From: Promethearchaeota archaeon
Lineage (GTDB): Archaea > Asgardarchaeota > Lokiarchaeia > Sigyniarchaeales > SOKP01
Assembly (NCBI GenBank): GCA_004524535.1
Contig: SDNY01000008.1
Location: 6,314-26,313 of the forward strand
DNA: 20,000 nucleotides
Direction of reading: 5' to 3'
The first letter of the stretch is position 1. Each line of letters starts with the position of its first letter. Positions 8,419 through 18,324 of this stretch are shown here, one piece after another. Below the pieces are notes generated by a model. It was not told the origin of the DNA. It did no database searches and was given only the letters and a program-made list of their open reading frames with translations. Position numbers and translations under genes: made by a program.

Positions 8419-8946
8419 TTAATGCTTTAAAAAAATAGTTTTAATAATATATCTTGTTAAACTCTCAAATGCATTTTCAACATTTAGCCCCGTTTTAGAA
8501 GATGTAATCATATAATCGAACAGATTGTATTTTTCTTTATGATATAATATATAATCTTCATCTAAACTTTGTTCCTCAACCAAATCAGCCTTTGTCCCTA
8601 AGAATATTATGGGTAAGTTTGGATCTTTCGATCTACAAATATTTACCCATTGTTCTATATTTTCTAAAGTTATTGCGCGAGTTAAATCAAACATTAGAAG
8701 AGCTCCTTTAGCTCCTATAACATAATTCTCCAATAAAAAGCGAAATCGTTCCTGTCCACCAAAATCCCAGATTTGTAGAATAACATCAAATCCATCAATG
8801 TTTAGTTCTTTTATAGAGAACTGAACTCCTATAGTCATCTTAGTGTCTGCCAGAAACTCTCCCTCAATGTATTTGTGAAGTAGAGTGGTTTTCCCCACAC
8901 CGCCATCACCGCTTGTAAGTATTTTAAGTACGAGAGGTCTACTCAT
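8419..8946 (-). CDS. Ras-superfamily small GTPase (Rab/Rho/Arf-like)
   Basis: G1 'GDGGVGKTT', G2-region 'TKMTIGVQF', G3 'WDFGGQERFR', G4 'LGTKADL', G5-like 'SSKTG'; ATG start. Confidence 0.95.
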   Translation of the reverse strand: MSRPLVLKILTSGDGGVGKTTLLHKYIEGEFLADTKMTIGVQFSIKELNIDGFDVILQIWDFGGQERFRFLLENYVIGAKGALLMFDLTRAITLENIEQWVNICRSKDPNLPIIFLGTKADLVEEQSLDEDYILYHKEKYNLFDYMITSSKTGLNVENAFESLTRYIIKTIFLKH

Positions 8947-9213
8947 TTTTAATTTTTTCTATTCAACTATATTTAATTAAAGACTAAATTATCGCTAAAT
9001 TGATTAAATTAATAATTGGATCTTATTTTAATAATTCTCATTTATAAATTATATTTCTTTAAATAAATTATTGTTTTTTTTCAATCATAATTATTAATAA
9101 AAGTATATAAAAAATTTCATTATAAACTATGAATATTTAATTAAAATTCTCATTATAAAAAGCATAGTTCTAAAAAATATTCAGAAATTTTAACCGAATT
9201 ATGGACACATTAA

Positions 9214-9669
9214 TTAAACTCTTTCAATACAGAGATATTTCTTTTGCCTTAAAAAAATAACATTAACATTTGAATTTTTGGCTTTTTTACGTAATTCTGA
9301 ATCATTAGTGGCTAGAAAAACATGACTATATTCTTTTTTTAATCTAATACACCATTTTAATAGAAATTCATCTGTGGTTTCCTTATCATTCTTAATCTCG
9401 TCAATGAAATAAATAGGATATACTTTTTCGTTTTTTTCTAAATAATTCATTCCGCCTTTTAACTGTCGATTAAATTTTCTAGCTTTTGTTTCTCTGATTA
9501 TCTTTGCGTTTAATTCGTCTAAAATTTGTTTGAATACATAAAATCTCGTTTTTCCCTCTAATTTCAAATAAATATCATTTAAATAATCAATTTTAAATTG
9601 GAAAGGTAGGAGTATAAAATTAGAGTCGATTATGATTATATTAATATTTTTCAAGTTCTTGGAATTCAA
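9214..9669 (-). CDS. PIN-domain nuclease-like protein (Fcf1/VapC9-type)
   Basis: 'NIIIIDSNFILLPFQFKIDYLNDI', 'FYVFKQILDELNA', 'TTDEFLLKWC', 'HVFLATNDSELRKKAKNSNVNVIFLRQKKYL' match the acidic PIN signature. TTG start overlaps the upstream GTPase stop (TTGA). Confidence 0.8.
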   Translation of the reverse strand: MNSKNLKNINIIIIDSNFILLPFQFKIDYLNDIYLKLEGKTRFYVFKQILDELNAKIIRETKARKFNRQLKGGMNYLEKNEKVYPIYFIDEIKNDKETTDEFLLKWCIRLKKEYSHVFLATNDSELRKKAKNSNVNVIFLRQKKYLCIERV

Positions 9670-10187
9670 TATGTTTGTCGGTCTAAGATCGTTCTTGTTA
9701 TTAATTCAAAAGATTCAAAAACATTTTCACCTGATTTTGAAGAAATTTTCAAGTAATCAAAGAGATTAAATTTTTCTTTAAATTGTAACGCATAATCATC
9801 ATCAACCATTACGTCATTTGCAAGGTCGAGTTTTGTTCCTAAAAAAAGAATCGGTAGGTTACTGTCACTTCTACGTACAATATTAACCCATTGTTGTAAG
9901 TTCTCTAACGTCATAGGTCGTGTTAGATCAAACATTAATAAGGCACCTTTTGCTCCTAAAACATAACTTTCTAATAAGAAGCGGAACCTTTCTTGCCCCC
10001 CAAAGTCCCATAATTGAAGAGTGCATTGTTTTCCATCAACTTCGATTTCTTTTAAGAAAAACTCGACACCTATAGTCATTTTCGTTTCTGCTGAGAATTG
10101 GCCTTCCACATACCTATGAAGCAAAGTTGTCTTCCCAACACCGCCTTCACCTGCTGTTAGAATCTTTAAAATAAACTTTTTGGGCAA
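9666..10187 (-). CDS. Ras-superfamily small GTPase, paralog of 8419-8946
   Basis: G1 'GEGGVGKTT', 'TKMTIGVEF', 'WDFGGQERFR', 'LGTKLDL', 'SSKSG'; start codon is TTG. Confidence 0.95.
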   Translation of the reverse strand: MPKKFILKILTAGEGGVGKTTLLHRYVEGQFSAETKMTIGVEFFLKEIEVDGKQCTLQLWDFGGQERFRFLLESYVLGAKGALLMFDLTRPMTLENLQQWVNIVRRSDSNLPILFLGTKLDLANDVMVDDDYALQFKEKFNLFDYLKISSKSGENVFESFELITRTILDRQTY

Positions 10188-13737: not shown

Positions 13738-13800
13738 GATTGAAAAAAGTGATGGAATAAATTAAAATAATTATAATATTTACCACAAAAGTTAAAGCGC

Positions 13801-13951
13801 TTCCGGGTTCGGATGGGACCGGGTATTTTCCAAGATTCCCATGACCGTAAACGAATCTTTGCTTGCGGCGCGAAGCGCGCAATCAATTTACAGTTTGACA
13901 GTTCCCACAGATCGCAACTGCAGTACTATTGTCAACGAAATCAAGTTTAAC
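13801..13951 (-). rRNA. Circularly permuted 5S rRNA gene: 3' half (13951-13887), hairpin linker (13886-13852), 5' half (13851-13801)
   Basis: Minus strand reads GUUAAACUUGAUUUCGUUGACAAUAGUACUGCAGUUGCGAUCUGUGGGAACUGUCAAACUGUAAA, then linker, then UUUACGGUCAUGGGAAUCUUGGAAAAUACCCGGUCCCAUCCGAACCCGGAA. Re-ordered it is a ~116-nt archaeal 5S. Helix I UUUACGG/CUGUAAA (7 bp), helix III CCGG/CCGG, helix IV CUGCAG/CUGUGG, helix V UUGACA/UGUCAA. Confidence 0.88.
13863..13882 (-). other. Linker hairpin joining the natural 3' and 5' ends of the 5S rRNA
   Basis: UUGCGCGC-UUC-GCGC(C)GCAA: 8 bp with one bulged C, in an otherwise AT-rich region. Confidence 0.75.
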
Positions 13952-14103
13952 TTCCGGCGCGTGCCTAATTGCCACCAACTTTTATGGCTGTATCCGTAAT
14001 ATAGCAGCATTTTACTATTTCATAATAAATGCTTGCTTATATGATTTAGACTAAAAATGGTAATAAAGGTTAATAATTAAATTTTTTCAAAAAAAGATCA
14101 AAC

Positions 14104-16728: not shown

Positions 16729-18324
16729 ATGGCAAATGAATTAGAGGATGTAAGTGGCATTGGAAAGGCAACAGCTGAAAGATTAAAAGCGGCAGGGATT
16801 GATTCAGTTCAAAAATTAGCTACTGTAAAACTTGAAGATTTATTAGGATTAAAAATTAAAGGTGTTGGAACAGCCACTGCAAAAAAATATATAGAGAACG
16901 CTAGAAGTATGTTTGAAAAAATGACTTCTAAAGAAAAGGTTACAACTCCATCTAAAGTAGTTAAAGAAAAAGAAGTTAAAAAAGAGAAGAAAATCCCAGA
17001 AAAAGCTAAAGTAAAGGAAAAAAAAGCAAAAGCAATAGAAGAAAAAGGATTGGATGTAAAGAAGGAATTAAGACAACAAGCTGAATGCAACATTGGTTTA
17101 GTTGGTCATGTAGACCACGGAAAAACAACGCTAGTTAAGGCTATGACTGGAGATTGGACAGACAGACATTCTGAAGAACAAGAGCGTGGTATATCTATTA
17201 AATTAGGATATTCTAACGCAACAATTCTCTACTGTCCAACATGCGATATTTATGTAACGGCACATATGGCTGAATTGGAAAGAAAAAAAGGTCAACCCCG
17301 ATATACTTGTTCAAAATGCAAAGGTAAATTAATTTTTAAGCGTAATATTTCTTTTGTGGACGCACCTGGACATGAAATACTAATGGCAACCATGCTTAGT
17401 GGAGCCTCTCTAATGGACGGAGCTTGCCTATTAATTGCTGCGGATGAACCATGTCCACAACCTCAAACAAGAGAACACTTAGCTGCTTTAAACATTGCAG
17501 GGATTAAGAACATCATTGTTGTACAGAACAAGATAGATGCCGTTTCAAAAGAGCAAACTTTAGAGAACTACAATCAAATTAAAGATTTTATTAAAGGAAC
17601 TGTTGCTGAAAATGCACCAATAATACCAACCTCATCTGTTTTTAACTCAAACATAGATTTAGTGATTCGCGCTTTTGAAGAAGTAATCCCTTCTCCCAAA
17701 TTGAATGAAGACGAGGAATTTCAGTTTTTAATAGCTCGGTCATTTGATATTAATCGCCCTGGAAGTGAAATTGATGATTTAAAAGGTGGCGTTATTGGTG
17801 GTTCTGTATTAAAAGGAAAAATAAAAATTGGTGATAAAATAGAAATTCGACCTGGCCTTCACATTAAAGATAATTATATGCCATTAAAATCAACTATCAT
17901 TAGTATTAGTCAAGGTAAGAATTTATTGGAGGAAGCTAAACCAGGGGGGCTTATAGGTTTAGGAACAAAATTAGATCCGTCTTTGACTAAGGGAGATTCT
18001 TTAATTGGTCATTTAGTTGGTCGACCAGGAGAGTTACCAGAAATCCTTTCTGAAGTGGAATTAAATGTTAATCTTTTAGATCGAGTGATAGGTTCTGAAA
18101 ATATGATAAAAGTGCACGATCTCAAGCATAATGAAAAATTATTGCTAGTTGTTGGTACAGAAAAAACAGGTGGAATAGTTACAAAAATTTTAAAGAATAC
18201 CGTAATAATTAAATTAAATCCCCCAATTTGTCCTGCGGAAAATTTTATTTACGCTATTTCTCGTATAATTAATCGCCGTTATCGATTAATTGGATATGGA
18301 GTTAATATAAATCACAATAAATAG
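16729..18324 (+). CDS. eif2G: Translation initiation factor aIF2-gamma with N-terminal helix-hairpin-helix domain and charged linker
   Basis: 'NIGLVGHVDHGKTTLVKAMTGDWTDRHSEEQERGISIKLGY', 'CPTCDIY...CSKCKG' Zn knuckle, 'SFVDAPGHEILMATMLSGASLMDGACLLIAADEPCPQPQTREHL', 'VQNKIDAV'. N-term 'LEDVSGIGKATAERLKAAGIDSVQKLATVKLEDLLGLKIKGVGTATAKKYIENARSMFEKM' is HhH. Confidence 0.95.
   Translation: MANELEDVSGIGKATAERLKAAGIDSVQKLATVKLEDLLGLKIKGVGTATAKKYIENARSMFEKMTSKEKVTTPSKVVKEKEVKKEKKIPEKAKVKEKKAKAIEEKGLDVKKELRQQAECNIGLVGHVDHGKTTLVKAMTGDWTDRHSEEQERGISIKLGYSNATILYCPTCDIYVTAHMAELERKKGQPRYTCSKCKGKLIFKRNISFVDAPGHEILMATMLSGASLMDGACLLIAADEPCPQPQTREHLAALNIAGIKNIIVVQNKIDAVSKEQTLENYNQIKDFIKGTVAENAPIIPTSSVFNSNIDLVIRAFEEVIPSPKLNEDEEFQFLIARSFDINRPGSEIDDLKGGVIGGSVLKGKIKIGDKIEIRPGLHIKDNYMPLKSTIISISQGKNLLEEAKPGGLIGLGTKLDPSLTKGDSLIGHLVGRPGELPEILSEVELNVNLLDRVIGSENMIKVHDLKHNEKLLLVVGTEKTGGIVTKILKNTVIIKLNPPICPAENFIYAISRIINRRYRLIGYGVNINHNK

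Follow-up and report, generated by a model that had tools for sequence, protein, structure and literature searches.

The 5S ribosomal RNA (rRNA) is regarded as the rRNA that stays constant, is collinear, and can be found with ease. This study concerns a 5S rRNA gene, permuted at the DNA level, on the minus strand of a 20,000-nucleotide (nt) stretch of DNA from a Promethearchaeota archaeon of the Lokiarchaeia (GenBank assembly GCA_004524535.1, contig SDNY01000008.1, positions 6,314 to 26,313 of the forward strand); this whole stretch is referred to as the window, and positions given without a locus label are counted along it. In mechanism, the closest described systems are the permuted tRNA genes of Cyanidioschyzon merolae and of Thermofilum pendens and other archaea. 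As in those genes, the 3' half lies upstream within what is predicted to be one transcript, leader and trailer are predicted to form a bulge-helix-bulge (BHB) motif, and cleavage followed by ligation would restore the functional sequence by way of a circle. Unlike those genes, this one specifies a 5S rRNA, the join between its native ends is a hairpin or tetraloop with no sign of removal, and the circle is probably the end product. A further difference from permuted tRNA genes is that the central helix of the BHB reuses the palindromic CCGG of the RNA's own helix III.

In context, its nearest counterparts are the processing stems of archaeal 16S and 23S rRNA, in which a long leader–trailer stem with an embedded BHB brings about excision and circularization of the rRNA, yielding circular pre-rRNAs and circular 23S rRNA in mature ribosomes (PMC12918454). 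Those genes are collinear and their stems close on the native ends, whereas the stem of this permuted gene closes on helix III or loop C, so that ligation would be needed to create conserved internal sequence. The 5S rRNA, unlike 16S and 23S, has been stated not to be processed by excision and circularization (PMC12918454). In the permuted 23S rRNA of Pyrococcus and Thermococcus, BHB-dependent circularization likewise changes the topology of a large-subunit rRNA (PMC7758197); there, however, a collinear gene yields an RNA that is permuted after transcription by excision of helix 98, whereas here splicing would undo a permutation already present in the gene.

The only natural permuted 5S rRNA in the literature searched is that found in the mitochondria of brown algae and other stramenopiles (Valach et al., 2014, PMC4267664). 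That RNA, too, has a helix I closed by a hairpin, has its ends elsewhere in the molecule, and is missed by the standard model, but it belongs to an organelle, the alpha and gamma domains meet where its ends lie, it has neither a BHB nor duplicated bases, and its final product is linear. The ends predicted here lie in the beta domain, at 51/52 or 34/35, and are accompanied by a BHB, which places the locus outside the brown-algal type. An artificial parallel is the engineered Escherichia coli cp5S, whose native ends are joined by a 4-nt connector and whose new ends lie in loop C or D; this RNA is fused into 23S rRNA and is neither spliced nor circular (Huang et al., 2020, PMC7283268). Engineered 5S rRNA with tetraloop-joined native ends works in E. 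coli ribosomes (PMC7283268). No report of a permuted or circular 5S gene in Archaea was found in the literature searched.

Read 5' to 3' on the minus strand, to which all features of the locus given below belong, the 3' part of the gene (13887–13951) precedes the 5' part (13801–13851). The 3' part, GUUAAAC...UAGUACUG...UGGGAAC...AAACUGUAAA, aligns to the 3' two-thirds of 5S rRNA and comprises G52, loop B, the 3' strand of helix II, helices V/IV with loop E (UAGUAC...UGGGAAC), and the 3' strand of helix I. A 35-nt hairpin extension (13852–13886) caps helix I and connects the native 3' end with the native 5' end. The 5' part, UUUACGGUCAUGG...ACCCGGUCCCAUCCGAACCCGGAA, aligns to the 5' third of 5S rRNA, contains the 5' strand of helix I, loop A, helix II, helix III, and loop C (CCCAUCCGAAC, 13817–13807), and ends at A51 (13801). 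The segment between the two predicted cuts runs from 13951 to 13801 and is 151 nt long.

Standard searches pass over this gene. No Rfam family of any kind reached its gathering score in the window, ARAGORN found no tRNA there, and neither the window nor 10 related loci gave a 5S match at the gathering level (threshold 38 bits). At relaxed thresholds, positions 26–52 of the Rfam 5S model match 13825–13800 with 21.5 bits, and a forced full-length alignment over 13979–13885 reaches 15.2 bits, with only its 3' part convincing. The Rfam 5S consensus and structure were rebuilt from printed alignments, rotated at 51/52, and closed at helix I with UUCG; this model (R1) was built from the Rfam consensus alone and therefore carries no information from the loci described here. 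R1 matches the window with model positions 1–124 at exactly 13801–13951 on the minus strand (26.3 bits, E 8.5e-4 over 166 kb), and its best match among the relatives is to locus L013 (41.5 bits, E 2.6e-7). A second model (R2), the same consensus rotated at 34/35, matches three further loci over its full length and at their predicted ends: L027 at 2767–2886 (44.1 bits, E 1.3e-8), L024 at 2618–2739 (33.2 bits, E 7.5e-6), and L022 at 2715–2836 (23.2 bits, E 0.0025). Each rotation scores best on its own breakpoint type, R1 being poor on these three loci (type B) and R2 poor on those broken at 51/52 (type A). Since the rotated consensus models match at full length, the missing gathering-level match is attributable to the permuted gene order. 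Both parts of the window's gene thus have a partial match to the Rfam model and lie within the R1 match, with covariation as further evidence for the 3' part, and the 5S motifs CCCAUCC-GAAC, CCGGAAGUUAA, UAGUAC, and UGGGAA align to the Rfam consensus. Permutation of the gene is well supported by these comparisons.

Homologs of the locus were sought in two ways. Genome and metagenome scans with permuted-order motif patterns, whose gap ranges fitted only long (~150-nt) forms and missed the common 120-nt forms, returned L002 and L007, both close relatives of the window, and L009/L010, which represent one divergent form; L003–L006 and L008, all bacterial, were rejected as chance matches of these scans, and a scan of viral contigs gave no match. 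The rest of the family was found by a search with the neighboring TauE-like membrane protein, followed by retrieval of the contigs of its homologs. This protein has 77 homologs, and all those with a named source come from an Asgard metagenome-assembled genome (MAG) or a marine sediment metagenome. The gene order C25 peptidase, 5S, TauE-like membrane protein, cupin, Ras, PIN, Ras is conserved, and this shared synteny indicates that the loci are orthologous. Altogether, 13 distinct 5S RNA sequences were recovered from Lokiarchaeial contigs at the syntenic locus, and the arrangement is permuted in every one, with identity of the neighboring protein to that of the window falling as low as 42%. The L015/L016 sequence comes from Loki's Castle metagenomes, and near-identical copies of the locus occur in two Promethearchaeota MAGs (Loki lineage, NCBI taxonomy). 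L028, the most distant TauE-like neighborhood fetched, has no 5S upstream and a DNA methyltransferase fragment in that place (740–1360); synteny ends at that distance, and L028 is uninformative on permutation. A permuted-order 5S motif pattern was expected 0.00 times in shuffled sequence, and the combination of this motif order, the full-length R1 match, and recurrence in 13 homologs is far beyond chance.

The rejoined RNAs fold as 5S rRNA. When the sequences were spliced in silico, with both cuts placed after the second base of the bulge, the ends joined, and the result rotated to start in the helix I cap, RNAalifold returned for the 13 sequences the canonical three-way junction with helices I, II, III, and V/IV. 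Compensatory changes occur in 15 of its 32 pairs; 95.4% of cells are paired, as against 24–44% when the partners are slid by 1–3 columns, and none of 500 shuffles reached the observed pairing or covariation. The predicted circle measures 120–122 nt in eight sequences and 149–154 nt in those with insertions, which lie in an extension of helix I (window, L007, L011) or in helix IV or loop D (L009, L015). The native ends of 10 of the 13 sequences are linked by a tetraloop (UUCG, CUCG, UUUG, or UUAG), under which the 8-bp helix I shows compensatory changes; the others have the 35-nt hairpin. Cap length thus varies from 4 to 35 nt, as in a solvent-exposed expansion, and no spacer or processing signal was seen in the cap in any of the 13 sequences. 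A removable spacer in the helix I linker was considered and rejected, because most lineages have the tetraloop only.

The insertions themselves differ in character. The 35-nt extension at the tip of helix I, found in the window (13852–13886), L007, and L011, holds a conserved AAGCAAA(A)G stretch and looks like a lineage-specific expansion at the former 5' and 3' ends. L009 (7782–7930, minus strand) and L010 (2898–3046, plus strand) carry a 27-nt insertion in helix IV after UAGUACUGCA (AAAGUGCUAUUAUAUCUUCGCACUGCAG), which folds as UGCA/UGCA, an AAA bulge, and GUGC/GCAC, a shape reminiscent of the HBh' form of a BHB; judged by this fold, it may be not an expansion segment but a second mini-intron. 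In L015 (1336–1486) and L016 (1209–1359), a hairpin of ~31–38 nt is inserted in loop D (AAGGAUGACCACUUCGAUGUUCCUU...), with a predicted circle of 151 nt.

At the predicted splice site of the window, the leader side reads GCG (13960–13958), CCGG (13957–13954), AA (13953 and 13952), and then G13951 followed by UUAAAC, while the trailer side reads GAAC ending at 13807, CCGG (13806–13803), AA (13802 and 13801), G13800, and CGC (13799–13797). The outer helix h' consists of G13958–C13799, C13959–G13798, and G13960–C13797. The central helix H has 4 bp, from C13957–G13803 to G13954–C13806, and joins a leader copy of CCGG that would be discarded to a CCGG (13803–13806) that, in the mature fold, also serves as helix III's 3' strand. 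On the inner side, helix h can form from G13951–C13807, U13950–A13808, and U13949–A13809, in which case a 2-nt AA bulge remains. The two bulges, AAG at 13951–13953 and AAG at 13800–13802, would be cut between A13952 and G13951 and between A13801 and G13800, respectively; G13951 would become nucleotide G52 of 5S rRNA, and the trailer's AA would be kept as A50 and A51. Farther out, after a UUU that follows the trailer CGC, the 3' arm of a leader–trailer stem (AACUUUUGUGG, 13783–13793) pairs over 11 bp with the 5' arm (CCAUAAAAGUU, 13977–13987). An earlier note on this DNA, made from its letters, had already pointed to a CCGGAAG duplicated at the permutation breakpoints, to a 4-bp helix between the two CCGG copies, to pairing of CGC with GCG, and to a possible pair of the bulge G with C13807 that would leave a 2-nt bulge. 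Its strings, coordinates, and 151-nt segment length are correct on the minus strand, and the pairings it named can all be drawn as above; at the level of sequence its reading holds throughout, and the comparison among loci given below supports it. CCGGAAG has two minus-strand copies (reverse complements starting at 13800 and 13951) and four more on the plus strand, so that the 7-mer repeat alone is weak evidence; it is the arrangement that recurs in the 13 homologs.

Comparison among the loci bears directly on where the cuts would fall. The leader has the order h', H, bulge and the trailer the order H, bulge, h' in the 10 type A sequences. The leader copy of H is CCGG, or CUGG with a G.U pair in L012, L025 (both type A), and L027, this C-to-U change being the only one seen there, and its partner CCGG is invariant in all homologs. 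Helix h' is 2–5 bp long and covaries: GCG/CGC is replaced by ACG/CGU in L011, GCGU/ACGC in L025, and GCG/CGU in L027, and it is often extended to AGCG/CGCU. The leader–trailer stem shows covariant arms as well (CCAUAAAAGU/ACUUUUGUGG, CCACAUUUAC/GUAAUGUGG, CCUCAU/AUGAGG, UCAUAUCAG/CUGAAUAUGG). In a fixed-register alignment of BHB and stem, 91.4% of cells are paired, as against 22–44% when slid, and 10 of 19 pairs are compensatory. Such changes occur at 4 of 4 counted positions in h' and in 5 of 8 counted pairs in the leader–trailer stem. Compensatory change in homologs had been proposed in the earlier note as a check, and homologous loci without the motif and its pairing as evidence to the contrary; 13 of 13 loci keep the arrangement. 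Within the type A bulges, the leader has AAG, AGG (L011), or ACG (L013), with a variable second base and G as third base in 10 of 10, and the trailer has AAG, AAU, or AAA, with an invariant AA and a variable third base. The bases predicted to be discarded thus vary (leader bulge base 2, trailer bulge base 3, the C of the leader CCGG), and those predicted to be kept never do. This pattern is the one that cutting after the second bulge base on both strands would be expected to leave, the 5' part then supplying A50 and A51 and the 3' part G52, and the predicted type A junction is ...GAACCCGGAA joined to GUUAAAC.... The earlier note had named the same cut, as the canonical one, and had seen that ligation there restores the 5S consensus. 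The cut sites are well supported by the sequence pattern.

L022, L024, and L027 are permuted elsewhere. In these type B loci the 5' part ends after the 5' strand of helix III (...ACCCGG plus 2 nt), and the 3' part begins inside loop C. With predicted cuts marked by carets, the motif of L024 is CGCG-CCGG-AC^A... and ...CCGG-AC^G-CGCG, and that of L027 is UGCG-CUGG-AA^C-CAUCC... and ...CCGG-UC^A-CGUG. In L027, cutting after the second bulge base (UC^A and AA^C) rebuilds GGUC followed by CCAUCCGAAC, the exact type A consensus of loop C, and the junction restores the consensus GGUCCCAUCC; the predicted type B junction is ...ACCCGGNN joined to NCAU.... At both breakpoints the palindromic CCGG of helix III pairs with a leader CCGG, which suggests that the shared palindrome could have given the splice point a way to jump between the two strands of helix III. 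Two breakpoints that share one circular topology are hard to explain unless the ends are rejoined.

The archaeal splicing endonuclease is known from tRNA introns to cleave after the second bulge base, and its products, with a 2',3'-cyclic phosphate and a 5'-OH, are a normal substrate of RtcB. The following route can be proposed for the locus. One transcript would carry, in order, the leader, 5S nt 52 to the 3' end, the hairpin that closes helix I, nt 1–51, and the trailer; leader and trailer would pair into the 11-bp processing stem, the inner part of which forms a relaxed BHB. The splicing endonuclease would then cleave both strands after the second base of their bulges, and RtcB would join A51 to G52 into a covalently closed RNA of 151 nt (120–122 nt in relatives without insertions), whereupon the released CCGG would pair again within helix III and give the ordinary three-way junction of 5S rRNA. 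Asgard EndA is of the broad-specificity (alpha-beta)2 type, with an L1 loop, and accepts relaxed motifs (PMC5829648), and BHB-excised archaeal RNAs, including the precursors of 16S and 23S rRNA, are generally circularized (PMC12918454, PMC5829648). The RNA would most likely stay circular in the ribosome, because most relatives join the native ends by a tetraloop only. Which enzymes act, that the ends are ligated, and that the circle (120–154 nt) persists in the ribosome are inferred, and we consider it likely, taken as a whole, that the Lokiarchaeial 5S gene is permuted at the DNA level, that its transcript is cut by the splicing endonuclease and joined by RtcB, and that the circle is kept in the ribosome.

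Upstream of the leader stem are two TATA-like motifs. The farther one in the window (CAUAUAAGCAAGCAUUU, 14027–14043) is a candidate TATA-type promoter; its form CAUAUAAGYAAGCAUUU recurs ~48–58 nt before the stem arm in most homologs. The nearer one (CUAUAUUACGG, 14004–13994) is a conserved motif of the form YUAUAWAAUGG, 9–24 nt before the arm. The possibility that the leader stem arm is itself a TATA box, with transcription starting at G52, was rejected because the arm covaries with the trailer arm. Between stem arm and BHB lies a short leader hairpin (GGUGGCAAUUAGGCAC, 13961–13976), degenerate in the window and clearer in homologs, for example GUAGCAUUUCGCUAC or AUAAGCAAUUCGCUUAU. In L013, L015, L024, L009, and L027, a copy of GUGGUU stands a few bases upstream of AACCAC, with which it could form a hairpin; in competition with the GUGGUU of the trailer, it could reflect an alternative early fold or be a remnant of duplication.

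Several observations weigh against a spliced, circular 5S rRNA. The evidence throughout is at the level of DNA, from which expression, ends, and junction are predicted; the search covered the contigs around the locus rather than whole genomes, and a second, collinear 5S gene may lie elsewhere in them; and the helix alignment of BHB and stem was anchored by hand. The two TATA-like motifs stand at inconsistent distances from the leader stem, and if the nearer element were used, the stem arm of the window would not be transcribed. As regards geometry, an archaeal BHB has on each strand a helix, a 4-bp helix, a 3-nt bulge, and a helix (PMC5829648). Such a geometry, named in the earlier note, holds in the trailer half, where the 3-nt bulge is clean except in L022 (a single A opposite). 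In the leader half the bulge numbers 3 nt, which a pair of G52 with C13807 would bring down to 2 nt, as the note had allowed, and in type B it opens into an unpaired region; helix h amounts to 3 bp in type A (G52–C, U–A, U–A) and is absent in type B. Judged from the aligned sequences, the motif is a relaxed BHB of HBh'-like form, canonical in its trailer half and noncanonical in its leader half. In thermodynamic folding, the BHB conformer lies 5 kcal/mol above the minimum in the window and 0–8 kcal/mol above in the other precursors, owing to competition with helix III; in these models it is the minimum-energy fold in some precursors only, and folding energies neither support nor exclude it.

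Against this background, the same two cuts could leave the ends unjoined, giving a linear, permuted 5S rRNA with a nick between A51 and G52 (or in loop C in type B). All of the DNA-level evidence, namely the varying bases, the covariation, and the rotated models, fits this outcome equally well, and a natural 5S rRNA that is permuted in its final product does exist, in brown-algal mitochondria (PMC4267664). However, it would depart from the usual fate of endonuclease products, which is ligation by RtcB and circularization; the nick would fall beside the AA bulge of helix III or in loop C, with ends held by only 4–6 bp; and a single circle common to the sister lineages would be easier to tolerate than nicks at two different positions among them. 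We regard a nicked RNA as unlikely, if worth keeping in mind. It is quite improbable, in our judgment, that the circle is instead an intermediate, reopened at the helix I cap to give a conventional linear 5S rRNA. Reopening of this kind is the route described for permuted tRNA genes, by RNase P and tRNase Z (Soma et al., 2007, as cited in PMC4267664), and is also known for circular pre-16S rRNA (PMC12918454). Most homologs, however, have a tetraloop on an 8-bp helix and hence no spacer to remove; the length of the cap is free to vary from 4 to 35 nt, and the engineered tetraloop-capped 5S rRNA is functional. We know of no enzyme that would reopen such a tetraloop cap.

The weak or absent helix h, together with a BHB that is not always the minimum-energy fold, would also fit ends made by other nucleases acting on the leader–trailer stem, with the BHB-like pairing incidental. 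Yet the leader CCGG, which has no role in 5S rRNA, is conserved and changes only to the G.U-compatible CUGG, h' covaries, and the geometry and the pattern of kept and discarded bases fit the endonuclease rule to the nucleotide at two breakpoints; the use of other nucleases therefore seems very unlikely. A rearranged 5S pseudogene, or a chance resemblance, would account for the lack of a gathering-level Rfam match, but conservation in synteny, though the neighboring protein is only 42–65% identical, together with 15 compensatory 5S pairs and full-length matches to independent rotated models, leaves this explanation with a negligible probability. 

Returning to the permuted gene whose transcript would be spliced into a circle, we incline, on a reading that goes one step further, to the view that the 5S rRNA in Lokiarchaeial ribosomes is a covalently closed circle, which the tRNA-splicing machinery makes from a permuted gene, and that the splice point has moved at least once (51/52 versus 34/35) by exploiting the CCGG of helix III.

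The surroundings of the gene in the window include archaeal Spt5, aIF1A, aIF2-gamma, and two Ras-family GTPases, with a G+C content of ~30%, a combination indicative of an Asgard archaeon. A Ras-family GTPase, a PIN-domain protein, and a second Ras-family GTPase form a trio (8419–10187, minus strand) that is conserved beside the 5S locus in all related loci. The open reading frame for aIF2-gamma (16729–18324, plus strand) encodes 531 aa with an N-terminal helix-hairpin-helix domain (HHH_5); aIF2-gamma is typically shorter, and the reading frame may be a fusion or have a mis-called start. In L024 (~2600–2790), the 5S unit stands in its entirety in inverted orientation with respect to its flanking genes and lies between the inverted-repeat arms of the leader–trailer stem, as if flipped by recombination between these arms. 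L016 has a match to a group II intron domain (Rfam RF02012, 48.8 bits) at 29–159 on the minus strand, ~1 kb upstream of the 5S gene.

If the proposed interpretation is correct, the gene would be without precedent in two respects, as a permuted 5S gene in a cellular (nonorganellar) genome and as an rRNA gene that depends on BHB splicing for a conserved internal sequence. Its product would probably be the first 5S rRNA to be circular by nature, and it would belong to the archaea that stand nearest to eukaryotes. The permutation would also explain why 5S rRNA is missing from Lokiarchaeial annotation and, hence, why the "5S present" criterion for high-quality MAGs fails. Other Asgard lineages have ordinary, detectable 5S genes, and for closed Heimdallarchaeum genomes the authors were unable to predict a 5S gene (PMC8813620). 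A permutation of this kind would explain undetected 5S rRNA in some Asgard genomes, and rotated covariance models offer a way to look for it in Heimdallarchaeum. The two breakpoints, finally, would amount to a natural experiment on the migration of splice sites in structured RNAs.

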